From: Ammonifex sp.
Lineage (GTDB): Bacteria; Bacillota; Desulfotomaculia; Desulfotomaculales; DYER01
Reading direction: 5' to 3'
Assembly (NCBI GenBank): GCA_020725605.1
Contig: DYER01000026.1
Coordinates: 1 to 57,743, forward strand
Length of the DNA: 57,743 nt
The notes below the pieces were generated by a model. That model was given only the letters and a program-made list of their open reading frames with translations, was not told the DNA's origin and did not search any database. The position numbers were made by a program, and so were the translations under genes. Shown here one piece after another: positions 29,943 through 41,564 of the stretch (positions are counted from its first letter, which is position 1; each line of letters starts with the position of its first letter).

Positions 29943-30371
29943 TTGGCGGACCTACCCCCCGCACTGGCGGCGGAACTGGAAAGGGCCTTTCGCACCCATC
30001 CCTTTGGAGGGCTGATGGGGATCAGGCTGGCGTCCGCGGGGATCGGGCGTGCGATGCTTACCTTCACGGCCTCGCCCCACCAGGCCAACCTCCACGGCAC
30101 CCTGCACGGCGGGGCCATCGCCACCCTGCTGGACATGGCCATGGGCGCGGCGGTGTACACCCTGAACGTCAGGGCCGTGACCGTGGAACTGGTGGTCACC
30201 TATCTGGCGCCGGCAAATCCCGGAGAGCTGGTCACGGCCACCGGGGAAGTGACGCACCGGGGGCGGCGCATCATCGTGGCCCAGAGTACGGCCCGGGGGC
30301 CCGCCGGAACGGTGGCCAGGGGCCACGGTCTGTATTTGCCGCGCGGTTCCGTTCTCGAGTTTGAGTCTTAA
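29943..30371 (+). CDS. PaaI-family thioesterase
   Basis: N..GTLHGGAIATLLD.AMG hotdog motif. Confidence 0.9.
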   Translation: MADLPPALAAELERAFRTHPFGGLMGIRLASAGIGRAMLTFTASPHQANLHGTLHGGAIATLLDMAMGAAVYTLNVRAVTVELVVTYLAPANPGELVTATGEVTHRGRRIIVAQSTARGPAGTVARGHGLYLPRGSVLEFES

Positions 30372-31476
30372 CCCTCGTGCCACCCGGAAGGGTGGCTTTT
30401 AGTTTGGCCGTCCCCAGCAGCAGGAGGGGTACCAGAATCTGCATGGTCAGGGAGTAGGGGGGCCAAGTCTTGGAGACCCAGGTGGTCATTTCGGGTATGC
30501 TGTCGAAAAAGAACACGGCCCATACGATTTCAACGAGTACCAGGGGGAGGAGCAGGGGGCGGTAGTCGCGCAGGTCGAGCAGCTGGGCCGTGGCCAGGGT
30601 TCCCACATAGAACCAGACGGTGAACTTGGCAAAATTGCCGGCCACCCAGATGATCATGATGACGGCGTCGATGCGGGTGATGAAGTCCGCGATGTTCACC
30701 TGGCGGGCCAGTTCGAAGAAGGGAAAGATGAGCCGTGCGGCGGAGGCCCCGAAAACCGCGGTGGTGAAGGCGGCGTTGATCGACAGTACCAGGGTTACGA
30801 TCAGCAGACCCGCCAGACCGGCCGCAAAACCCGTTCGCGCCGGGTAGACGAAGGGAAGAAGATAGGCCGCAAAGGTGACCTCGCCCATCCAGGCGGCGGG
30901 GGGCAGGGCCCCGCGTACCACGGCCGCGGGTCGGGTCTCCAGTACGGGGCGGAGGTACTGGAAATTCACCATGTTAAGTAGCAGCAGCAGGATGACCCCG
31001 AAGGATATCAGAATGAGGGGGACGATGAGGGTCGTTACCCGTGCCACCACCTCGAGACCGCTGCGGACGCAGTAGACGCTCAGGAGCCCCACCAGACCCA
31101 TGAACACCAGAAGCGGCGTGGTGGGCATGAAGGCAATGGTTATGAATTCGGCGAATTCGCGCAAGATGACGGCGGCCGGAATGAACACATAAAGGATCAG
31201 AAACAGCCCGACGATTTTGCCCGCGACCTCGCCTAGGGTCGATCTGGCGTACTGAATCGGCGTCAGACCGGGAAAGCTCTTGCTCAGGCTCCAGACCAGT
31301 CCTAGGGCGGCCATCCCCTGGAGGAGCGCGGCCCAGGGGACGATCCAGGCGTCCCGCCGGGCCACTTCGGCGGCAAAGGCCGGAAGAAAGAGGATGGCCG
31401 TCGGTAAAATAACGGCTATTACCAGGAACATGGCCTGCGGCCCGGATATCTGCCCGCGTTCCAGCACCGGCACCAC
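30271..31476 (-). CDS. Spore germination protein, GerAB/KB (B-subunit) family
   Basis: About 10 TM helices; ILFLP, DAWI, TTP, GLEVVAR, FITRIDA. Confidence 0.9.
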   Translation of the reverse strand: MVPVLERGQISGPQAMFLVIAVILPTAILFLPAFAAEVARRDAWIVPWAALLQGMAALGLVWSLSKSFPGLTPIQYARSTLGEVAGKIVGLFLILYVFIPAAVILREFAEFITIAFMPTTPLLVFMGLVGLLSVYCVRSGLEVVARVTTLIVPLILISFGVILLLLLNMVNFQYLRPVLETRPAAVVRGALPPAAWMGEVTFAAYLLPFVYPARTGFAAGLAGLLIVTLVLSINAAFTTAVFGASAARLIFPFFELARQVNIADFITRIDAVIMIIWVAGNFAKFTVWFYVGTLATAQLLDLRDYRPLLLPLVLVEIVWAVFFFDSIPEMTTWVSKTWPPYSLTMQILVPLLLLGTAKLKATLPGGTRVKTQTRERNRAANTDRGPWPPFRRAPGPYSGPR

Positions 31477-31481
31477 CCGAG

Positions 31482-31509
31482 AAAAAAGGGGGGGACGTAC
31501 CCCCCTTTT
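31482..31509 (-). terminator. Intrinsic (bidirectional-type) terminator immediately upstream of the gerB-like gene
   Basis: AAAAAA-GGGGGGG-acgta-CCCCCC-TTTT; on the minus strand a G6/C7 stem followed by T6. Confidence 0.75.
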
Positions 31510-31570
31510 CGTGTGTCGGCCTTCCGCCGGGGTCTCACCCCGGCCCGTGGCCCGGTCCTACCCGTTCCCG

Positions 31571-31705
31571 TCAGCCCTTTCTTGTTAGGGCCAGCAGGTA
31601 AATCTCCTTCTGCTGTTTGTCCTTGTTGAGTTTTTTCTCCAGGTCCTGAAGCTGGGTCAGCTGAACCGCGTTGAGGTGCGCCAGTTCCATGCCCGCCAGG
31701 TCCAT
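31571..31705 (-). CDS. Small 44-aa hypothetical protein
   Basis: RBS GAGGAGG; MDLAGMELAHLNAVQLTQLQDLEKKLNKDKQQKEIYLLALTRKG. Confidence 0.7.
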   Translation of the reverse strand: MDLAGMELAHLNAVQLTQLQDLEKKLNKDKQQKEIYLLALTRKG

Positions 31706-31757
31706 GGGGGTAACCTCCTCTCGCGCGTTATTATATCCTGACGATGAGAAAATAATC

Positions 31758-31786
31758 TTGACTCGGGTGGGATTGAGAGATATAAT
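31758..31786 (+). promoter_or_regulatory. SigA promoter for feoA
   Basis: TTGACT-17-TATAAT. Confidence 0.8.
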
Positions 31787-31800
31787 CATTCACAAAAGAT

Positions 31801-31815
31801 TGAGAATGGTTCTCT
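31801..31815 (+). promoter_or_regulatory. Fur-box-like operator upstream of feoA
   Basis: TGAGAAT-G-GTTCTCT, resembling the 7-1-7 TGATAATnATTATCA; an ATAATCATT half-site also overlaps the -10. Confidence 0.65.
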
Positions 31816-31825
31816 ATGCTGCGGG

Positions 31826-32056
31826 GTGGGGGACGTGACTCTGGACCGCGTGCGGCGCGGGCAGGTTCTGCGTATCGCCGGCCTTCCCGACGGCGTCTTC
31901 CGGGCTCAGGCCCTGCGTTTCGATCTGGGCGAAGGGGCCGTGGTGACGTGTCGCGAGGTGATACCGGCCGGGCCGGTGGTACTGGCCCGGCGGCGTCAGG
32001 AGGTGGCCATCGGGCGGGACCTCGCCCGGCTCATTATGGTGGAGCCCGTGCGGTAG
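31826..32056 (+). CDS. feoA: Ferrous iron transport protein A
   Basis: SH3-like FeoA pattern: TL..V..G..., LR..L.EG, GPVV......VAIGRDLA..I.V. Confidence 0.88.
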   Translation: MGDVTLDRVRRGQVLRIAGLPDGVFRAQALRFDLGEGAVVTCREVIPAGPVVLARRRQEVAIGRDLARLIMVEPVR

Positions 32057-32081
32057 TAGTTTTATTTTTTTGCTTCCTCGT

Positions 32082-32102
32082 TGAAAATGGTTTTTATTCT
32101 CA
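32082..32102 (+). promoter_or_regulatory. Second Fur-box-like operator upstream of rtcB
   Basis: TGAAAATGGTTTTTATTCTCA; 13/19 match to GATAATGATAATCATTATC and 11/15 identical to the feoA box. Confidence 0.55.
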
Positions 32103-32123
32103 TGGAAAAATAAGGTTCCACCC

Positions 32124-32153
32124 TTGCGTAAGTGGTACCGTTAAGGGTATACT
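32124..32153 (+). promoter_or_regulatory. SigA-type promoter for rtcB-feoB
   Basis: TTGCGT-18-TATACT. Confidence 0.55.
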
Positions 32154-32183
32154 TTCAATGGCGGGCAAGGGGGTGGAAAAAAC

Positions 32184-33605
32184 ATGGATCTGGTACGGGA
32201 GGGACCCAACCGGTACCGGCTGCCGCGCCGGGGGGCCATGCGGGTGGACGGAGTGGTCTATGTAACCGAGGCCCTGCTGAGCCACCTGCGGGAGGACAAG
32301 TCCCTGGAACAGCTGGCCAACGCGGCGTGCCTGCCGGGGGTGGTGAACCCCGTGGTCGGGATGCCGGATATCCACGAGGGCTTCGGGTTACCCATCGGTG
32401 GGGTTATGGCCGTGGCCGAGGGAGGGGTCATTTCGGCCGGCGCCGTGGGCATGGACATTAACTGCGGCGTGAGGCTGATTCGCACCGACCTGGCGGCCGG
32501 GGAGTGCGATAAGCCCCTTCTGCGCCGGCTCATGGACCGTATCGAGGATTACGTGCCCACGGGGGTGGGCAAGAAGGGCAAACACAAGGGCATTACCGGG
32601 GACATTTTCGAACGGGTGGTGCACGTCGGCGCCCGCGGTGTGGTGGAGGAGGGCTACGGCTGGGAAGAGGACCTCCCCTGCACCGAGGAGGAGGGCTGCC
32701 TGCCCGGCGCGGACCTGGGGGCCGTGAGCGCCGAGGCCGTCAAGCGCGGTGCCGTGCAACTGGGGACCCTGGGCGGGGGTAATCATTTCATAGAACTGCA
32801 GGAAGTGGACCACGTGTGGGACCACGAGGTGGCAAGGCAGTTCGGCCTTTTCAGGGGCCAGCTGGTGGTCATGGTCCACACCGGAAGTCGCGGGTTCGGT
32901 CACCAGATCTGTACCGATTACAGCAAGAGCCTGCTTCAGGCCGCCAAGAAGTACGGGGTGGAGGTCCCGGACAAGGGTTTGGCCTGTGCTCCCGTAGACA
33001 GCAAGGAGGGGCGGGCCTACTACGCCGCCATGGCCTGCGCCGTGAATTTTGCCTTCAGCAACCGCCAGCTGATCACCCACGACGTGCGGCGGGCCTTCGG
33101 CGACGTCCTGGGCCGCGACCCCCGGACCCTGGGTATGAGGGTGGTCTACGATGTGGCCCACAACATTGCCAAGTGGGAGGAACACGGGGGTCGCCGGTTG
33201 CTGGTGCACCGCAAGGGGGCCACGCGGGCGCTACCGGCGGGACACCCCGGAAATCCGGCCGTCTACCGGGCCACCGGGCATCCCGTTCTGGTACCGGGAA
33301 GCATGGGCACAGCCTCCTACGTGCTGGTGGGCACACCGGCGGCGGCCGCCACCTTCTTTTCGGTGAACCACGGCGCGGGGCGTACCCTTTCCCGCCACGC
33401 GGCGGAAAGGTCCATTACCAGGGAGCAATTCGAGGCCAGTATGGGAGACGTGCTGTACAACACGCGCAATTTCAGGGACATCGTGGACGAGGCGCCCCTG
33501 GCCTACAAGGATATTCACCAGGTGGTGGACACCCTCGTAGAGGTCGGGATGATGCGCAAGGTGGCCCGCATGCGTCCGCTGGCGGTGATTAAGGGTAAGG
33601 ACTGA
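32184..33605 (+). CDS. rtcB: RtcB RNA ligase (3'-phosphate/5'-OH)
   Basis: MPDIHEG, GMDINCG, QLGTLGGGNHF, HTGSRG, HN, HRKGAT, PGSMG, HGAGR. Confidence 0.97.
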   Translation: MDLVREGPNRYRLPRRGAMRVDGVVYVTEALLSHLREDKSLEQLANAACLPGVVNPVVGMPDIHEGFGLPIGGVMAVAEGGVISAGAVGMDINCGVRLIRTDLAAGECDKPLLRRLMDRIEDYVPTGVGKKGKHKGITGDIFERVVHVGARGVVEEGYGWEEDLPCTEEEGCLPGADLGAVSAEAVKRGAVQLGTLGGGNHFIELQEVDHVWDHEVARQFGLFRGQLVVMVHTGSRGFGHQICTDYSKSLLQAAKKYGVEVPDKGLACAPVDSKEGRAYYAAMACAVNFAFSNRQLITHDVRRAFGDVLGRDPRTLGMRVVYDVAHNIAKWEEHGGRRLLVHRKGATRALPAGHPGNPAVYRATGHPVLVPGSMGTASYVLVGTPAAAATFFSVNHGAGRTLSRHAAERSITREQFEASMGDVLYNTRNFRDIVDEAPLAYKDIHQVVDTLVEVGMMRKVARMRPLAVIKGKD

Positions 33606-33620
33606 GCGGGAGGTGGGGAG

Positions 33621-35591
33621 GTGGATTGTTGCGGCCGGCAGTTCGCGGGCGATGGCGTACCGCCCGGGGGCCGGCGCATCGTGCTGGCCGGCAACCCCAA
33701 CGTGGGGAAATCGGTCTTTTTCAATGCCTTCACCGGGCTTTACGTTAATGTTTCCAACTACCCCGGCACGACCGTGGAAATCGCCCGCGGCCGGTGGGGA
33801 CCGGACCTGGTGCTGGATACCCCGGGGGTCTACGGGTTATCCTCCTTCAACGAGGAGGAGCGCATCGCCCGGGACATCATCCTGCAGGCCGACCTGGTGG
33901 TTAACGTGGTGGACGCGGTCCACCTGGAAAGGGACCTCTTTCTCACCCGACACATTATCGACACCGGCGTGCCGGTGGTCGTGGCCCTAAACATGGTGGA
34001 CGAGGCGCGCAGGCAGGGGCTCAAGATCGACGTGCCGCGGCTGGAGCAGGAACTGGGGGTACCCGTGGTGCCCACGGTGGCCGTTACGGGTAAAGGTCTG
34101 GCCGAGCTCCGGCAGCGCCTCCATACGGCCCGGCCCGGGCGGGTGGATCCGGATCTGGTGGCCCTGCTGGACGAACTGGTAGCGGCCACCGGCGGTAGGA
34201 TAAGCAGGGGCGAGGCCCTGCTGGTGCTGGAGGGCGACGAGGAGATAGCCCGGCGCTACGGCCTGCCCCCCGGGGACCGCCGCGAGGCCCTTTACCGGGT
34301 ACGGCGGGCGGAGGTCAACCGCATCGTGGAACTGGTGGTGCGGGAGGGGGCGCCCCGGGCGGATCTGGGGTCCCGCCTGAGCCACTGGATGTTGCAGCCC
34401 CTGACGGGCTGGCCGTTACTGGCCCTGACCCTGTGGTTGATCTACGAGTTCAACGGGGTGTTCATCGCGGGCACGGTGGTGGGGTTCGTTGAAGGGAGCC
34501 TGATGCAAGGCTACTACGAACCCGCGGTGAGGGATCTGGTAGGGTACCTGCTGCCTACCGGACCTTTAAACACCCTCCTGGCGGGGGATTTCGGCATCCT
34601 GACCATGACCGTGACTTACATTCTGGGCCTGCTGCTACCCCTGGTGGCCGGATTTTACCTGGCGCTGGGGCTCCTGGAGGACGTGGGTTACCTGCCGCGC
34701 ATTGCGGCCCTGGTGGACAGGTTCCTCGTCGGGTTCGGCCTCAACGGGCGGGCCGTCATTCCCCTCATCATGGGCTTCGGCTGCGTGACCATGGCCTCCA
34801 TTACGACGCGCCTGCTGTCCTCGGACCGGGAGCGGCGCATTGCCATTTTCCTGCTGGGTCTCTCCATTCCGTGTTCGGCTCAGCTGGCGGTGATCGTTAC
34901 CATGCTGGCGGGGCTGGGCCCCGGTTACGCGTCCCTGTACGCCCTGATCATCGGCAGCCTCCTGGTGGCCACCGGCACCCTGCTGGGGCGTTTTTTGCCC
35001 GGGGAGGCCACGCCTTTGTTCATCGACCTGCCGCCGTTGCGGCTGCCCCGCTGGCGTAACGTCCTGAAGAAAACCGCGGTGCGGACCTGGCACTTCCTCG
35101 GGGAGGCCACGCCTTTGTTCGTGATCGGTTCCCTGGCTTTGAGCGTCATGCAGGTGAGCGGACTGCTGGGAAGGCTCCAGTCCTGGCTGGCCCCCCTCAC
35201 CGAGGGCTGGCTCAAACTGCCGCGGGAGACCGCCAACGCCTTTATCATGGGTTTCGTACGGCGGGACTTCGGGGCCGCCGGACTCTACCAGCTGCCCCTG
35301 AACCCGGATCAGACCCTGGTGGCCCTGGTCACCATCACCATCTTCGTGCCCTGTGTCGCCTCGACCCTGGTGATTTTCAAGGAGCGGGGCCGCAGGGAAG
35401 CCCTGGTCATCTGGCCCACCATCTTCGTCCTGGCCTTCGTCATCGGGGGCATACTGGCCCACCTTTTCGCCTTTTTCCGCGGGATGGCCGGGGAATCCGT
35501 GTTGCCCCTGGTAATCGGCAGCGTACTCCTGTTCCTGGCCGCGGTCCTGGGCTTGACGAGCCTGCGCCGTACCCGCTGGTCGGGAGGCTAG
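33621..35591 (+). CDS. feoB: Ferrous iron transport protein B
   Basis: GNPNVGKS, NYPGTTV, DTPG, NMVD GTPase motifs; LEDVGYLPR, MGFGC, IPCSAQ, PCVAS. Confidence 0.97.
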   Translation: MDCCGRQFAGDGVPPGGRRIVLAGNPNVGKSVFFNAFTGLYVNVSNYPGTTVEIARGRWGPDLVLDTPGVYGLSSFNEEERIARDIILQADLVVNVVDAVHLERDLFLTRHIIDTGVPVVVALNMVDEARRQGLKIDVPRLEQELGVPVVPTVAVTGKGLAELRQRLHTARPGRVDPDLVALLDELVAATGGRISRGEALLVLEGDEEIARRYGLPPGDRREALYRVRRAEVNRIVELVVREGAPRADLGSRLSHWMLQPLTGWPLLALTLWLIYEFNGVFIAGTVVGFVEGSLMQGYYEPAVRDLVGYLLPTGPLNTLLAGDFGILTMTVTYILGLLLPLVAGFYLALGLLEDVGYLPRIAALVDRFLVGFGLNGRAVIPLIMGFGCVTMASITTRLLSSDRERRIAIFLLGLSIPCSAQLAVIVTMLAGLGPGYASLYALIIGSLLVATGTLLGRFLPGEATPLFIDLPPLRLPRWRNVLKKTAVRTWHFLGEATPLFVIGSLALSVMQVSGLLGRLQSWLAPLTEGWLKLPRETANAFIMGFVRRDFGAAGLYQLPLNPDQTLVALVTITIFVPCVASTLVIFKERGRREALVIWPTIFVLAFVIGGILAHLFAFFRGMAGESVLPLVIGSVLLFLAAVLGLTSLRRTRWSGG

Positions 35592-35596
35592 GGGAT

Positions 35597-36775
35597 TTGC
35601 GGTTCTGGATTTTCCTTGCCTCGTTCCTGTATTTCTGGCCGGGCCCCGGGGGGGTCGCGTGGGGCGCTACGCCCGCCGGGGAACCCGAAGTTGTGGCCCG
35701 GGCGGCGGTGCTCGCGGATGCCCGGACCGGACAGGTGCTGTGGGCCAGGAATCCCGACTTGCGGATGTACCCCGCCAGCACCACCAAGATCCTGACGGCC
35801 CTGGTGGTGGTCATGAGGGCCGATCTGACCGAGAGGGTGCGCGTGGTGCCGGAGGATACGAACGCGGGCGGCTCGGCCATCTGGCTGCAGCCGGGTGAGG
35901 TGTTGAGCGTCGAAGACCTTCTTTACGCCCTGCTCCTCAACTCGGCCAACGATGCCGCCGAGGCCCTGGCCAGGCATGTGGCGGGCTCGGACCGGGACTT
36001 TGCCCGGCTCCTGAACGATACGGCTCTGGCCCTGGGGGCCACAAATACCCATTTTACCAACCCGAGCGGCATGCCGGACCCCAACCACTACACCACGGCC
36101 CGGGACCTGGCAACAATTGCCCGGGCGGCCCTCGCCCACCCGGTGCTCCGACGTATCGTAGCCACCCGTACGTACGAGATCGGGCGCCAGGACCCGGAGG
36201 CCGTACGCTACCTGGTGAACCACAACAAACTCCTCTGGCGCTATCCGGGCGCCATCGGGGTAAAGACCGGATATACGGTCGAGGCCGGCCAGTGCCTGGT
36301 GGCGGCAGCCCAAAGGGGCGAACGCACCCTGATCGCCGTGGTGCTCGGCAGTCAGGGAGCGGCCGTGTGGAGCGACGCGACGGTGCTGCTGGACTACGGG
36401 TTTGCCTCTTTCGAGAGCCGCGAACTCGTACCGGCGCACCTGCCGGTCAGCCGTGCGCCGGTTCGTTACGGTAGCCGCGACCTGGTGGCAATTACCGCCG
36501 ATTCGTTTACGTATAACTTCCGCGCGGGAGAAGAACCGCAGGTCAGGCAGGAACTCCGGCTGGACCGGCATTTAAGGGCCCCGGTGGCCGCGGGGGCCAA
36601 GGTTGGCGAACTGGTCCTTTTCGACCGGGATACCGAGTTGGGCCGGGTGGACCTGGTGGCGGCCGAGAGGGTTCCGCGCAAGGCCTACACCAGCTGGTGG
36701 TTCTGGGTGCTGGTGGCGACCGGAGTTGTGACCGTACGCCGGCTGGTACGCCGCCGGGGCTTCCGGTACCGTTAG
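35597..36775 (+). CDS. D-alanyl-D-alanine carboxypeptidase (peptidase S11)
   Basis: PASTTK, SAND, KTGYT; signal peptide and C-terminal TM. Confidence 0.95.
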   Translation: MRFWIFLASFLYFWPGPGGVAWGATPAGEPEVVARAAVLADARTGQVLWARNPDLRMYPASTTKILTALVVVMRADLTERVRVVPEDTNAGGSAIWLQPGEVLSVEDLLYALLLNSANDAAEALARHVAGSDRDFARLLNDTALALGATNTHFTNPSGMPDPNHYTTARDLATIARAALAHPVLRRIVATRTYEIGRQDPEAVRYLVNHNKLLWRYPGAIGVKTGYTVEAGQCLVAAAQRGERTLIAVVLGSQGAAVWSDATVLLDYGFASFESRELVPAHLPVSRAPVRYGSRDLVAITADSFTYNFRAGEEPQVRQELRLDRHLRAPVAAGAKVGELVLFDRDTELGRVDLVAAERVPRKAYTSWWFWVLVATGVVTVRRLVRRRGFRYR

Positions 36776-36800
36776 CGGCCCCGCTACCGGGGGTAATCCC

Positions 36801-37673
36801 TTAGGGGACAAAGGCCAGTAGCCTGGCCGCGGCCGGTAGAAGGGGCAGGGCCGCGAGGCTGGAAATGACGTTGAACAGGGTGTGGGCGTTGGCTATTTGC
36901 CTGGCCGGATCCTGGGCCGTCAGGACCACCAGGTGGGCGAAAAGGGGTAGCAGCGGCAGGAAAGAGAGGGTACCGGCCAGGTTGAGCAGCAGGTGGAAGA
37001 CCGCCACCTGCCGGCCTATCCTGGCGCCGGCCAGGCTGGCCACCAGGCCGGTGGCACACGTGCCGATGTTGTTGCCGAACACCAGGGCCAGGGCTGCCGG
37101 GAGTTCCAGGAGCCCTTCGCGCACCAGGGCCACCGCCACTGCGGTGGCGGCGCTGCTGCTGTGCAGGAGCGCCGCCAGAAGGCTGCCGGCGGCTACGGTG
37201 TGGAGCGGATTGCGGGTCGCCCCCGAGATCCAGTGGCCAAACCCGGCCTTCAGCGGTGTCAGGGCGTACTGGAGCAGGTAGAGGGCGGCGAAGACCAGGC
37301 CGAAGCCCAGACAGGCGATGCCTAAATTTTGCAGTGGGGGGCGTTTGGAGCAGAGGCGCAAGGCGAGGCCGGCCAAAACGGCGGGCAGAGCCACGGTGCC
37401 CGGGTCATGGGAGAGGATTTGTACCGTGGCGCAGGTGCCGATGTTGGCGCCGAGGACCACGGCCATGGCGCGGGGCAGGTCCAGCAGCCGGGCGTTGGCG
37501 AGACCTATGGTGAGGAGGGTGATGGCCGTACTGCTCTGGGCCAGGGCGGTGGCCACCAGTCCGGCGCAGAAGGCGCTCCAGGTGGACCCGGCCCACCGCG
37601 CGAGCAGGCGCCTGACACCCGGGCCGGCCATGCCCGTGAGGCCGGTCTGGATGCCGTACATTCCCAGCAGCAA
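36801..37673 (-). CDS. Na/Pi cotransporter family protein (membrane part only; start uncertain)
   Basis: QSSTA, GANIGT, HSSSA, GNNIGT, IANAHTLFN. Confidence 0.88.
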   Translation of the reverse strand: MLLGMYGIQTGLTGMAGPGVRRLLARWAGSTWSAFCAGLVATALAQSSTAITLLTIGLANARLLDLPRAMAVVLGANIGTCATVQILSHDPGTVALPAVLAGLALRLCSKRPPLQNLGIACLGFGLVFAALYLLQYALTPLKAGFGHWISGATRNPLHTVAAGSLLAALLHSSSAATAVAVALVREGLLELPAALALVFGNNIGTCATGLVASLAGARIGRQVAVFHLLLNLAGTLSFLPLLPLFAHLVVLTAQDPARQIANAHTLFNVISSLAALPLLPAAARLLAFVP

Positions 37674-37760
37674 CAGGGTCGGGACCGTCAGTAACAGTAA
37701 TGCCGTGGCTTCACAGGCCTCCCGTATATGCTTTTATCAGTAACAAGCTATGTTACGGGT

Positions 37761-37789
37761 TTGACAGGGATTACGGTAAGTTTTATACT
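37761..37789 (+). promoter_or_regulatory. SigA promoter for the fur-family gene
   Basis: TTGACA-17-TATACT. Confidence 0.8.
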
Positions 37790-37819
37790 AGACTTGATTC
37801 CGGTCGGGCGGTGGTTGAC

Positions 37820-38260
37820 GTGGAAGAGCTGGTGTCCAGGGCGGGACGAAAGCTGAAGGCCAAAGAGTACAAGCTGACGCCCCAGCGCGAGGAAATTCTT
37901 AGGGTACTCTATCAGCACCGGGATAAGCACCTGAGCGCCGAGGACATTCATTTCCTGGTGAAGCAGCGCACGCCCGACGTGGGTCTGGCCACCGTCTACC
38001 GCACCCTGGAACTCCTCCTGGATTGCGACCTGGTGCACAGGATCGATTTCGGTGACGGACGGCAGCGCTACGAGGTGGTCACGGGCCCCGACGCCGGCCA
38101 CCATCACCACCACCTGATCTGCACCCGCTGCGGACGCATCCTGGAAGTCGAGGAGGACCTCCTCGAGGCCCTCGAGCAGCGCGTGGCCCTCGCCTACGGT
38201 TTTCAGGTCACGGACCACCAGCTCAAGATGTTCGGCACCTGCCGGGAGTGCCGGGAATGA
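37820..38260 (+). CDS. fur: Fur-family transcriptional regulator
   Basis: LTPQR, HLSAED, GLATVYRTLELL, HHHHHLICTRCG, GTCREC. Confidence 0.93.
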   Translation: MEELVSRAGRKLKAKEYKLTPQREEILRVLYQHRDKHLSAEDIHFLVKQRTPDVGLATVYRTLELLLDCDLVHRIDFGDGRQRYEVVTGPDAGHHHHHLICTRCGRILEVEEDLLEALEQRVALAYGFQVTDHQLKMFGTCRECRE

Positions 38261-38394
38261 AGGTCGAGTCCGGGAAAACCTCCGGAGTACCGCCCACGGC
38301 CGCCGCTGAGGCGGTTTAAATTTTCTAACGTAGTGACATGTTTCCCCCGCTGTGTCATAATGGGAGAAAGCGATCAGGGAAGGGGGAACAACCC

Positions 38395-38802
38395 GTGTCG
38401 CCGGCGATGCTGGAACTCATAGTGCAGAGTCCGACCGTGCTCTTCGCGCAGTGGGATTTTCCGTTCCTCTGTGAGCAAGAGTGTGTGATGCGTTTGTACC
38501 GCTTGCCGGACGTCGGTGCCCTGCCCCAGTACGGTAGCGTGTGCCTGGAGTTGCCTCTTCCCCAATCGGCGGGCAGCATGTATTTTTACCGGCTGACCCC
38601 CGGCCATCATTACGTGGTGGAGATCGGGATCCGGCGGGAGGGTGTTTTCTATCCCTTACGGCGTTCCAACGTGGCCACCACCCCCCGTACGGAAGCGGCG
38701 ACGGAGGAGCCCGAACGAGTGGCGGCGGTGGTAGTGCCGCTGGCGGTTGCGGACTGGTTCGCCGAAGGTTCCGGTGCCGCACCTTACTACCCGGGCGAGT
38801 AG
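38395..38802 (+). CDS. DUF4912-like protein
   Basis: L.VQSP..LFA.W, RLY, YVVEIG...RSN...TP. Confidence 0.78.
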   Translation: MSPAMLELIVQSPTVLFAQWDFPFLCEQECVMRLYRLPDVGALPQYGSVCLELPLPQSAGSMYFYRLTPGHHYVVEIGIRREGVFYPLRRSNVATTPRTEAATEEPERVAAVVVPLAVADWFAEGSGAAPYYPGE

Positions 38803-38813
38803 GGGGGAGCCTC

Positions 38814-41564
38814 ATGGCACGGGGTTACCTGGCCTTGGTCCTGCATGCGCATCTGCCCTACGTCCGGTCCCGGGTCGGGGCCCTGGAAGAACGGTGGTTC
38901 TTCGAGGCCATGACCGAGTGCTACCTGCCCTTGCTGGAGGCCTGGGAGAACCTGGCCCGAGAGGGCCGCGCCTTTCGACTCACCCTTTCGCTGTCGCCGC
39001 CCCTGCTGGAAATGCTGGCCGACGAAAGCCTAAGCCGCCGGTATGTTGTCCACCTGGACAACCTGCTGTTGCTCGCCGAAAAGGAGGTGCAAAGGACCAG
39101 AAAAGACCCGCCCGTCTGGCGTCTGGCCCGGATGTACCGCGAGAACCTGGAAAGAATCCGCCACGCTTATGTGGAGGAGTATTATCGCAACCTGCTGGCC
39201 CCCCTGGCCCGTCTGCAGCGGGAAGGGTTTCTGGAATTGATAACCACCGCGGCCACCCACGGTTACCTGCCCCTGATGAGCAGCGAGAGCGTGCGGCGCG
39301 CCCAGATCGCCGTGGGGGTGGCCCTCTTCCGCCGGCACTTCGGGTGGCACCCGCCGGGCTTCTGGTTGCCCGAGTGCGGGTACGTGCCCGGAGTGGAGGA
39401 ACTGCTTAAGGAGTTCGGGCTGCGGTATTTCGTCCTGGACAGCCACGGGGTACTCAACGCACGACCCGCGCCCCGCCACGGGGTCTACGCCCCGGTGCTG
39501 ACCCGCTGCGGGGTGGCGGCCCTGGGACGGGACCCCACCAGTTCGCGCCAGGTATGGGACCAGCGCACCGGGTATCCCGGTGACTTCTACTACCGGGAAT
39601 TCTATCGGGACATCGGCCACGACCTGGACCCCGACTACCTGGCGCCCCACCTCCCGGAGGGCTGGGTCCGGGTGGACACGGGCCTGAAGTATTACCGGAT
39701 CACGGGCCCCACCGCGGACAAGGCCTTTTACGAGCCGGATCGGGCCCTGGAGCGGGCCGCGGAGCACGCGGCCCACTTCGTCGCCGAGCGCCAGCGGCAG
39801 GTGCGGAGTCTGGCCAAACACATGGAGGTGCCGCCCCTGGTGGTGGCGCCCTACGACGCCGAGCTCTTCGGCCACTGGTGGTACGAAGGCCCCCGGTGGC
39901 TGGAGCTGGTCCTGCGCCGGCTGCAGGACCAGGATACGGTGGCCCTCACCACGCCCGGCCGCTACCTGGACGCGTACCCCCACCATCAGGTGGTGGAGCT
40001 CGACCTGTGCAGTTGGGGCGAGGAAGGGTACAACAAGGTGTGGCTCAACCCGGCCAACGACTGGATTTACCGTTTCCTCCACCGGGCCGAAGCCGCCGTG
40101 GCCGAGCTGGCCGACCTTTACCCGTTTGCGGCCGGCCGCACCCGGCGGCTGCTGAACCAGGCGGCCAGGGAACTGCTCCTCGCCCAGAGCAGCGATTGGG
40201 CCTTCATCCTCCACACGGGGACCGCGGTGCAGTACGCCCGGCAACGCCTGACGGTTCACCTTGAAAACTTAAAACAATTAATTGGTGAATTAGAATCCGG
40301 AGCCAGAGCCCCCCTGGAGAAGCTGGAGGCCGAATATCCCTTCGCGCAGGATATCGATTACCGGGTTTTCAGCCGCTTTTTCCGGGGCAACCGGTCCGCG
40401 AGCCGCAGGCGGTTCCGCGTAGCCATGTTCTCGTGGGAATACCCCCCGAAAACCGTGGGCGGGCTGGGCCGCCACGTGTACGACCTTTCCCGGGCCCTGG
40501 TGCGACTGGGCGACGACGTGGTGGTGCTCACCTGCCCGGCGGGCGACCTGCCGTCCTGGCAGGTGGTGGACGGAGTGCGGGTATACCGCACGGACGGGTC
40601 CGGGGCGCCGGAGGGCAGCTTCCTGGACTGGGTGGCCTGGTTTAACGGCGCCCTGGTGGACCTGGCCGGGCGCGTCCTGCGGGACCACGGGCCCTTCGAC
40701 CTGCTTCACGCCCACGACTGGCTGGTGGGTCGGGCCTGCCTGGAGCTGCGCGCCCGGCACGGGCTCCCCCTGGTCACCACCATCCACGCCACGGAGCACG
40801 GCCGGAATCTGGGGCTCCACAACGAGACCCAGTGGCGCATCCACCAGGCCGAGGCGGAACTGGTGCGGGAGAGCGACCTAATCATTTGCTGTAGCCGTTA
40901 CATGGCCCGGGAAGTGACCGGCCTGTTCGCCGTGGCTCCCGACAGGGTACGGGTGGTACCCAACGGCGTGGAACCCCAAAACCTGGGCGTGGATCGGTGG
41001 TTGGGCCGGGACCGTACCGGCCGGATGGTGCTGTTCATGGGGCGGCTGGTGCCCGAAAAGGGCGTGCAGGTTCTGTTGCGTGCCTTTGCCAGATTGGAGG
41101 GGGAGCTACCGGATTTGTCCCTGGTGGTCGCGGGACGGGGGCCTTACGAGGATTACCTGCGGCAGCTGGCGGCCGAACTCGGCCTTAACGCGCGGGTTTG
41201 TTTTACGGGTTTTGTGGACGGAAAGAGGCGGCAGCAACTTTACCGGGACGCCGGTCTCGCCGTTTTCCCGAGCCTTTACGAGCCCTTCGGCATCGTGGCC
41301 CTGGAGGCCATGGCGGCCCAGGTGCCCGTAATCGTCAGCGACACCGGGGGCCTCAGTGAGGTGGTGGAACACGGTGCCACGGGCTTCAAGGTGCCGCCGG
41401 GCGATGTGGAGGCCTTGAGCTACTACATGGCCCACGTCCTCTCCCACCCGGAGGTATCCCGAACCCTGTGCTGGCGGGCCTGGCGGGAGATCCTGACCAG
41501 GTACAACTGGCAGTATCTGGCGGGAGAGACGCGCGAAGTATACCGGGAACTGCTGGCCGGTTGA
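38814..41564 (+). CDS. Fusion of GH57 1,4-alpha-glucan branching enzyme (DUF1957) and a GT4 glycosyltransferase
   Basis: HAHLPYV, WLPECGY, PYDAELFGHWWYEG, AQSSDWAF; then MFSWEYPP..GGLG.HV, HAHDWL, YEPFGIVALEAM in one frame. Confidence 0.92.
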   Translation: MARGYLALVLHAHLPYVRSRVGALEERWFFEAMTECYLPLLEAWENLAREGRAFRLTLSLSPPLLEMLADESLSRRYVVHLDNLLLLAEKEVQRTRKDPPVWRLARMYRENLERIRHAYVEEYYRNLLAPLARLQREGFLELITTAATHGYLPLMSSESVRRAQIAVGVALFRRHFGWHPPGFWLPECGYVPGVEELLKEFGLRYFVLDSHGVLNARPAPRHGVYAPVLTRCGVAALGRDPTSSRQVWDQRTGYPGDFYYREFYRDIGHDLDPDYLAPHLPEGWVRVDTGLKYYRITGPTADKAFYEPDRALERAAEHAAHFVAERQRQVRSLAKHMEVPPLVVAPYDAELFGHWWYEGPRWLELVLRRLQDQDTVALTTPGRYLDAYPHHQVVELDLCSWGEEGYNKVWLNPANDWIYRFLHRAEAAVAELADLYPFAAGRTRRLLNQAARELLLAQSSDWAFILHTGTAVQYARQRLTVHLENLKQLIGELESGARAPLEKLEAEYPFAQDIDYRVFSRFFRGNRSASRRRFRVAMFSWEYPPKTVGGLGRHVYDLSRALVRLGDDVVVLTCPAGDLPSWQVVDGVRVYRTDGSGAPEGSFLDWVAWFNGALVDLAGRVLRDHGPFDLLHAHDWLVGRACLELRARHGLPLVTTIHATEHGRNLGLHNETQWRIHQAEAELVRESDLIICCSRYMAREVTGLFAVAPDRVRVVPNGVEPQNLGVDRWLGRDRTGRMVLFMGRLVPEKGVQVLLRAFARLEGELPDLSLVVAGRGPYEDYLRQLAAELGLNARVCFTGFVDGKRRQQLYRDAGLAVFPSLYEPFGIVALEAMAAQVPVIVSDTGGLSEVVEHGATGFKVPPGDVEALSYYMAHVLSHPEVSRTLCWRAWREILTRYNWQYLAGETREVYRELLAG

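Follow-up and report, generated by a model that had tools for sequence, protein, structure and literature searches.

How did a gene for an RNA ligase come to stand inside a ferrous-iron uptake operon, and does its position mean that RNA repair and iron import are coupled? The question is raised by a 57,743-nucleotide (nt) stretch of Ammonifex sp. DNA (GenBank assembly GCA_020725605.1, contig DYER01000026.1; phylum Bacillota, order Desulfotomaculales), hereafter the window, whose forward strand carries rtcB between feoA and feoB. RtcB ligases join RNA 3'-phosphate or 2',3'-cyclic phosphate ends to 5'-hydroxyl ends in a reaction that depends on guanosine triphosphate (GTP) and Mn2+, and Fur-repressed feoAB(C) operons, such as feoABC of Escherichia coli and feoAB of the Firmicutes, take up ferrous iron. 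An earlier note on this DNA, made from the sequence alone, had proposed that RNA repair is co-induced with Fe2+ import. Our analysis divides that proposal: co-regulation is plausible at the level of one clade, but a functional link finds no support in the surveyed RtcB loci, the feoA–feoB spacing of relatives, the regions upstream of their rtcB genes, or the metal ligands of the enzyme. We consider it probable that rtcB is a tolerated, lineage-specific insertion into the feoA–feoB spacer, where it joined a Fur-controlled feo transcript.

The order feoA–spacer–rtcB–feoB, as the earlier note had described it, is borne out by the coordinates of the open reading frames (ORFs) and by their Pfam identities across the window (Table 1). 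The rtcB stop codon (33603–33605) is separated from the GTG start of feoB at 33621 by a 15-nt gap containing a strong feoB ribosome-binding site (RBS), GGGAGGTG. With rtcB between them, feoA and feoB lie 1564 nt apart and are no longer immediate neighbors. The locus resembles known feoAB(C) operons in encoding an SH3-like FeoA and a FeoB GTPase-permease in the same direction, from a promoter with a 7-1-7 Fur-box-like site behind it, and in having a linked fur gene. Unlike them, its feoA and feoB are split by 1.56 kb made up of a second Fur-box-like site and rtcB, a D-Ala-D-Ala carboxypeptidase gene (dacF) abuts feoB, and the gene order of the feo block includes no feoC. FeoB matches the NCBIfam model TIGR00437 at 367 bits (cut-off, 316 bits), and its translation contains the G1 motif GNPNVGKS.

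Comparison with relatives, namely genomes of the same order, none of which in the reference set belongs to the window's own family, points to rtcB as the gene that moved. FeoB orthologues, 53–64% identical to that of the window, are found in 40 of 41 same-order genomes. Among 29 loci of FeoB orthologues, feoA stands directly before feoB in 27, with gaps of −23 to +156 nt and FeoA proteins 43–64% identical to the window FeoA; in the remaining two, the contig ends within the locus. The earlier note was right, then, that the two genes are normally adjacent. None of the 29 loci contains rtcB. Because feoA and feoB adjoin in 27 of the 29 and rtcB is absent from them all, rtcB is the immigrant, and the resident block consists of a small ORF, feoA, feoB and dacF (and fur). 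Parts of this block recur in the relatives' feo loci: dacF follows feoB in 5 of the 29, the small ORF precedes feoA in two (L137 and L140), and fur comes after feoAB-dacF in one (L140). No meaningful direct or inverted repeats flank rtcB and no GC break accompanies it, as traces of a mobile element might.

The embedded order is rare. We searched RtcB loci with the window FeoA and FeoB; besides the window there were 308 (29 + 80 + 80 + 119), not all of them independent, as the genome-set samples probably overlap in species. The order feoA-rtcB-feoB is found in one of the 308, a metagenome contig designated L143. Specifically, it occurs in none of the 29 RtcB loci of relatives (40 relatives; 19 orthologues at 57–76% identity; flanks of ±1.5 kb), in none of the 80 best genome loci with flanks of up to ±6 kb, in one of the 80 best metagenome loci, and in none of 119 phylum-wide loci. 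The last set comes from an even sample of 401 genomes, with the Ammonifex genome itself and four covered genomes left out and two split matches merged; FeoA or FeoB lies nearby in 2 of the 119, both from one family (f85). The gene-neighborhood survey suggested by the earlier note thus finds an arrangement that is nearly, though not strictly, unique to this genome. It appears confined to one roughly genus-level clade of thermophilic (hot-spring, subsurface) Desulfotomaculia-like Bacillota. As a separate observation, many Bacillota RtcB matches at ~50% identity (e.g., in genomes G172, G231, G269, G320 and G394) are flagged with one internal TAG, TAA or TGA codon, possibly a natural stop overrun by the alignment.

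Elsewhere in the order, rtcB keeps different company. Relatives resembling Ammonifex, Desulforudis and Desulfopertinax carry the string acpS-yjeF(nnr)-alr-rtcB-cca-nlpC, or part of it. The cca-type gene, a PolyA_pol+HD nucleotidyltransferase of the CCA-adding type, lies 7–125 nt after rtcB (loci L040:2898–9840, L039, L050, L051, L052 and L061), and it adjoins rtcB in 11 of the 80 genome loci, 2 of the 80 metagenome loci and 10 loci of relatives. The RtcB proteins of the alr-rtcB-cca string are orthologous to that of the window (71–74% identical); their genes sit between alr and cca, an RNA-related pairing, whereas the window gene sits inside the feo operon. The Ammonifex assembly resembles a metagenome-assembled genome (115 contigs, 2.2 Mb, 85% complete), and its contig C39 reads acpS-yjeF-alr, then a T-rich stretch and a convergent helix-turn-helix gene, with no rtcB. 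Other relatives have rtcB in still other contexts, and the gene changes neighbors within this order. The rtcB-cca couple may be a transfer RNA (tRNA) end-repair pair. The Ammonifex genome also encodes two PolyA_pol-family nucleotidyltransferases (C44:1145–1528 and C61:20797–21159; open frames of 885 and 492 amino acids), of which the 492-residue frame adjoins an NlpC/LysM gene and may be a former rtcB partner.

The one other occurrence allows the insertion to be placed in time. L143, a metagenome contig of 133 kb from a related species, is 87–89% identical in DNA and carries the permease gene, small ORF, feoA, rtcB, feoB and dacF in the same order. The small ORF is 89–95% identical in amino acids, and the rtcB–feoB junction measures 30 nt in L143 versus 15 nt in the window. 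Synonymous divergence (dS) between the two is 0.32 for rtcB, 0.26 for feoB, 0.38 for dacF and 0.45 for feoA. Since the value for rtcB lies within the range of its neighbors (0.26–0.45), the insertion predates the split between the two lineages. The most constrained gene of the block is rtcB, with a ratio of nonsynonymous to synonymous divergence (dN/dS) of 0.03 and 98% amino acid identity; dN/dS is 0.09 for feoA.

Two Fur-box-like sites lie in the operon, as the earlier note had claimed, and they are the sole matches in the window. We searched for the pattern TGAnAATnATTnTCA with at most two mismatches in 12 positions, which returned only 31801–31815 and 32082–32096, where 0.17 sites are expected; a count of two was reached in 1 of 100 shuffles. 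Local dinucleotide shuffles produce a site in 18 of 2000 trials for the feoA leader and 19 of 2000 for the spacer, and the whole assembly contains 28 sites. Site 1 (box 1) begins 15 nt after the −10 hexamer of the feoA promoter and ends 11 nt before the feoA start; it directly follows the core promoter, the standard position for a repressor. Because 20 of 27 relatives carry at least one box (≥10/12) in the 200 nt before feoA, often a pair ~45–50 nt apart, box 1 is predicted to be the ancestral feo operator. It is unchanged in L143, where both its flanks differ.

Site 2 (box 2) has a different history. It reads as a pair of 7-1-7 motifs that overlap with an offset of 6 nt (the 9/12 of the shifted motif was counted by hand), and a genome-wide scan with a position weight matrix (PWM), one of the checks named in the earlier note, ranks it fifth. 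In L143, 19 of its 21 positions are kept; of the two differences, one brings the site closer to the pattern. None of the 27 feoA–feoB spacers of relatives carries a counterpart (best, 9/12), none of the 90 rtcB upstream regions of relatives carries a Fur box, and the 127-nt feoA–rtcB spacer is without a paralogue in the genome; among the fetched loci, only L143 has a homologue of it. Box 2 appears to be no older than the insertion. The regulator gene is close at hand: a Fur-family gene lies 2.1 kb downstream of feoB, in agreement with the ~2 kb given earlier. NCBIfam ranks Bacillus-type Fur first for it at 181.9 bits, which is below the 220-bit cut-off, versus 94 bits for PerR and 70 for Zur, and it is the most Fur-like of three such genes in the assembly (the C13 paralogue reaches 83 bits and the C64 paralogue is PerR-like). 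The true fur start probably lies 3' of a promoter called at 37761–37789 by the promoter scan. Judged by the rarity of the boxes, their presence in relatives, the linked fur and the lack of terminators, Fur control is credible.

How the downstream genes are transcribed depends on the two junctions. The terminator scan called nothing in the feoA–rtcB or the rtcB–feoB gap, and the RNA folds at both junctions are no better than those of shuffles (z of +1.0, −0.4 and +0.8), in agreement with the earlier note, which saw no terminator between rtcB and feoB. A terminator after feoA was considered and rejected, as the U-rich tract at 32060–32072 is not preceded by a convincing hairpin. An Rfam scan of 31400–38400 at E up to 1 found no riboswitch, Y RNA or other family. 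Both hexamers of the feoA promoter are identical in L143. The separate rtcB-feoB promoter proposed in the earlier note survives as a weak match, read from the sequence, at 32124–32153, which the promoter scan did not call.

This putative internal promoter is the basis of the first alternative, in which rtcB, with or without feoB, would be expressed mainly and constitutively from it and would sit inside the feo operon without being iron-regulated, box 2 being non-functional or serving only to stop read-through. L143 has the same −10 block, GGGTATACTTTCA, and keeps the −35-like hexamer as TTGCGC; box 2, which ends 21 nt before the putative −35 at 32124, lies upstream of this hexamer and not over it, and read-through could be weakened by the U-rich tract that directly follows the feoA stop. 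However, the promoter matches the consensus at only 8 of 12 positions, no credible terminator hairpin follows feoA, and box 2 combines conservation with its high genome-wide PWM rank. We regard expression independent of iron as unlikely, while granting it some weight.

The favored reading, insertion of rtcB into a Fur-controlled transcript, would run as follows. A single intact rtcB would have relocated into the short feoA–feoB spacer in the common ancestor of the narrow, roughly genus-level thermophilic clade, the surrounding block (small ORF, feoA, feoB, dacF, fur) being otherwise conserved. The genes feoA-rtcB-feoB-dacF would most likely be transcribed as a unit from the Fur-boxed feoA promoter, possibly with help from the weak internal promoter before rtcB, itself preceded by box 2. 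In iron-replete cells, the feoA promoter would be shut off by Fur-Fe2+ bound to box 1, and Fur-Fe2+ might bind box 2 as well, stopping read-through or hindering the internal promoter. Iron limitation would release the feoA-rtcB-feoB(-dacF) transcript, so that RtcB would be made together with the Fe2+ importer and would do the usual work of a 3'-phosphate ligase. The gene identities, order and motifs, the conservation of the motifs and the rarity elsewhere are observed; Fur binding, co-transcription and iron-responsive expression are inferred, and plausible. In this clade only, rtcB is probably transcribed with feoB behind Fur-box-like sites, a view supported by L143, which at a dS of ~0.3 retains both boxes, the gene order and a short junction.

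The next junction is instructive in this respect. Between the end of feoB (35591) and the start of dacF (35597) there are 5 nt, where the gaps of relatives measure ~100–220 nt; dacF is probably on the same transcript as feoB, and the whole feo block appears compacted in the window's clade. Because the unrelated dacF abuts feoB so closely, adjacency here does not imply shared function. We favor the view that the placement of rtcB reflects a tolerated, lineage-specific rearrangement in a small and compact genome; it does not show that RNA ligation is functionally coupled to iron uptake.

The features of the locus and its flanks are collected in Table 1. The small ORF divergent from feoA encodes 44 amino acids from an ATG with a GAGGAGG RBS (72 in the mechanically called ORF) and is without a Pfam or NCBIfam match; it may share a Fur-controlled divergent promoter region with feoA. 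A 1007-residue ORF on the forward strand 3' of fur (38541–41564) looks, by eye, like a large fusion of the glycoside-hydrolase/glycosyltransferase type. The same genome has a second feo locus on contig C75 (14767–16688), with feoA at 69.9 bits and a FeoB whose GTPase and membrane portions appear to be separate.

Table 1 Features of the feoA-rtcB-feoB locus and its flanks in the window.
Feature	Position	Strand	Basis
Spore-germination permease	30271–31476	−	ORF list/Pfam
Small conserved ORF, divergent from feoA	31571–31705 (mechanical ORF to 31789)	−	ORF list
feoA promoter, TTGACT-17-TATAAT	31758–31786	+	Promoter scan, 11/12
Fur-box-like site 1, TGAGAATGGTTCTCT	31801–31815	+	10/12 to TGAnAATnATTnTCA
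feoA, 76 aa (amino acids), GTG start	31826–32056	+	PF04023 FeoA, 38.4 bits
Fur-box-like site 2, TGAAAATGGTTTTTATTCTCA	32082–32102	+	Overlapping 7-1-7 motifs, 10/12 + 9/12
Putative weak internal promoter 5' of rtcB, TTGCGT-18-TATACT	32124–32153	+	Read from sequence, 8/12
rtcB, 473 aa	32184–33605	+	PF01139, 534.7 bits, model positions 1–426/426
feoB, 656 aa, GTG start	33621–35591	+	FeoB_N (PF02421), Gate (PF07670), FeoB_C (PF07664)
D-Ala-D-Ala carboxypeptidase (DacF-like)	35597–36775	+	Peptidase_S11 + PBP5_C (Pfam)
Na/Pi cotransporter	36801–37673	−	ORF list/Pfam
fur	37700–38260	+	PF01475 FUR; NCBIfam NF051892, 181.9 bits

Several points weigh against a tolerated insertion under Fur control. Box 2 is not placed over a promoter and is thus not in the classical position of a repressor site, and a weak promoter-like sequence within the 3' end of rtcB (33526–33553, 9/12 in the promoter scan) could drive feoB separately. 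In its own genome the motif is not validated as a regulon, because other good boxes do not stand beside recognizable iron genes: those at C47:285, C95:13874 and C83:28034, AT-rich and intergenic-looking, adjoin Cas1, proteins without a Pfam hit, or a sodium:solute symporter. The second feoA-feoB locus has no Fur box upstream (best, 8/12), and neither has fur itself (best, 7/12). From the other side, a box 2 that is found only in this lineage and yet is kept in L143 hints at selection for Fur control of rtcB-feoB, which a purely neutral view does not predict. Finally, a second Bacillota family, f85, represented by two genera, also has rtcB near a Fur-boxed feoAB.

The enzyme itself gives no sign of a link to iron. 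The window RtcB is of the long Pyrococcus/Thermus type (E of 7e-140 to the Thermus thermophilus protein TTHA1785, PDB 2epg, and 3e-138 to Pyrococcus horikoshii RtcB) and is present as a single copy in the assembly. Its residues Asp91, Cys94, Asn200, His201, His232, His326 and His396 align with D95, C98, N202/H203, H234, H329 and H404 of the P. horikoshii enzyme, which we take to be the residues for metal, guanosine monophosphate and the guanylylated nucleophilic histidine. The cysteine that the earlier note assigned to the metal site is accordingly present. The protein is predicted to be an ordinary GTP/Mn2+-type RNA 3'-phosphate ligase. With the customary Asp/Cys/His residues at the metal site, the sequence offers no indication that the metal preference has shifted or that this RtcB uses Fe2+.

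Several known partners of RtcB escaped detection, in line with the earlier note. In the 85%-complete assembly we found no archease (PF01951), which the control search detects in 6 of 14 genomes (Thermus and archaea), no RtcA (PF01137) or RtcR (PF06956), both of which the controls detect in E. coli, and no TROVE/Ro protein. The E. coli rtcBA RNA-repair operon, reportedly described by Tanaka and Shuman in 2011 with RtcR as its sigma54 activator, shares with the window an RtcB-family ligase whose catalytic residues are identical. It differs in having RtcA and RtcR, in its RtcB subtype, as the window protein reaches 206 bits on the E. coli-type model NF007153, whose cut-off is 407, and in its regulation, which in the window would be by Fur and sigma-A rather than RtcR and sigma54. 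The RtcB-archease "tRNA splicing operon" of archaea and Thermus, said to have been reported by Desai et al. in 2014, has the same RtcB subtype as the window (E of 1e-138 to 1e-140) but differs from it in the archease.

A second alternative treats the coupling as adaptive, with RtcB a deliberate member of the Fur or iron-starvation regulon in this clade; the ligase might repair RNA breaks caused by metal stress or starvation, Feo might supply its divalent metal, or it might work with Fe2+. An operator that is apparently new to the lineage and kept in L143 fits this proposal, as does the strong constraint on rtcB (dN/dS of 0.03, 98% amino acid identity). The unchanged metal ligands and the single embedded locus among 308 argue against it. 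The f85 family, in turn, bears on both sides. Its loci (G120 = L348:2784–9071 and G160 = L349) read endoIII, an RNaseH/beta-propeller fusion, rtcB, DUF2680, feoA and feoB, and thus place rtcB and a Fur-boxed feoAB within 1 kb and in the same direction, with rtcB two genes from feoAB. Unlike in the window, however, rtcB there precedes the feo unit and is no part of it, cut off from feoA by the DUF2680 gene, an inverted repeat (hairpin) and the feo promoter, and all three Fur boxes stand between DUF2680 and feoA, with none before rtcB. One embedded event and one loose co-localization among ~100 or more lineages compare with a rough chance expectation of 0.3–1 events, estimated from ~2 feoB loci per 2.5-Mb genome, a 5-kb span and 85 RtcB-bearing genera.

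Published data add little to the case for adaptive coupling. Table 5 of a study of iron depletion in Bacteroides thetaiotaomicron (PMC10434189) lists an RtcB-family gene as raised 2.7–3.6-fold, but the entry is one of 323 raised genes and the P values reach up to 0.437. The RtcB passages of another paper (PMC9600594), which cites both Tanaka and Shuman and Desai et al., are unrelated to iron, and a further paper (PMC4805248) has no more than an entry in its reference list. Literature searches for RtcB with FeoB, the Fur regulon or Fe2+ found no described link of RtcB to Feo, Fur or Fe2+, in line with the earlier note, which knew of none. We judge adaptive coupling to be rather improbable. Because the comparative evidence amounts to one embedded event and one loose co-localization, we find no support for a general functional link of RNA repair to iron.

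It also seems scarcely probable that RtcB was recruited into the Fur regulon, with a new operator at 32082–32102 evolving before the inserted gene and the ligase being switched on with Fe2+ import. A recruited RtcB might re-join tRNA or ribosomal RNA cut by starvation-activated ribonucleases, or metal imported by Feo might load its active site.

The weakest alternative, a chimeric contig in which an rtcB fragment was joined to a feo locus, could be suspected from the fragmented, incomplete state of the assembly, but we reject it as having a negligible chance of being true, because independent metagenome contigs from three runs (X1, X2 and X3, from three studies; one run may be the window's own source) bridge both the feoA/rtcB and rtcB/feoB junctions, one of them spanning 31504–35800 unbroken, the 133-kb contig of the related species carries the same order, and GC content is even across the junctions.

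In conclusion, the locus looks like a Fur-boxed feo operon that captured rtcB, a local accident of gene order rather than a sign of a general link between RNA repair and iron. Recruitment of RtcB as a working regulon member would, if real, make this a first instance of RNA repair under iron control. Should Fur indeed govern rtcB here, nature would have tied an RNA-repair enzyme to metal homeostasis, and the operon would offer a handle on the role of bacterial stand-alone RtcB, which is still poorly understood. In small thermophile genomes, tight adjacency need not mean shared function, as the dacF–feoB junction illustrates. As the evidence stands, the locus provides a clean, datable example of a housekeeping-type gene entering an existing operon, in which the inserted gene would inherit the regulation of the operon and the operon perhaps gains a compensating operator.

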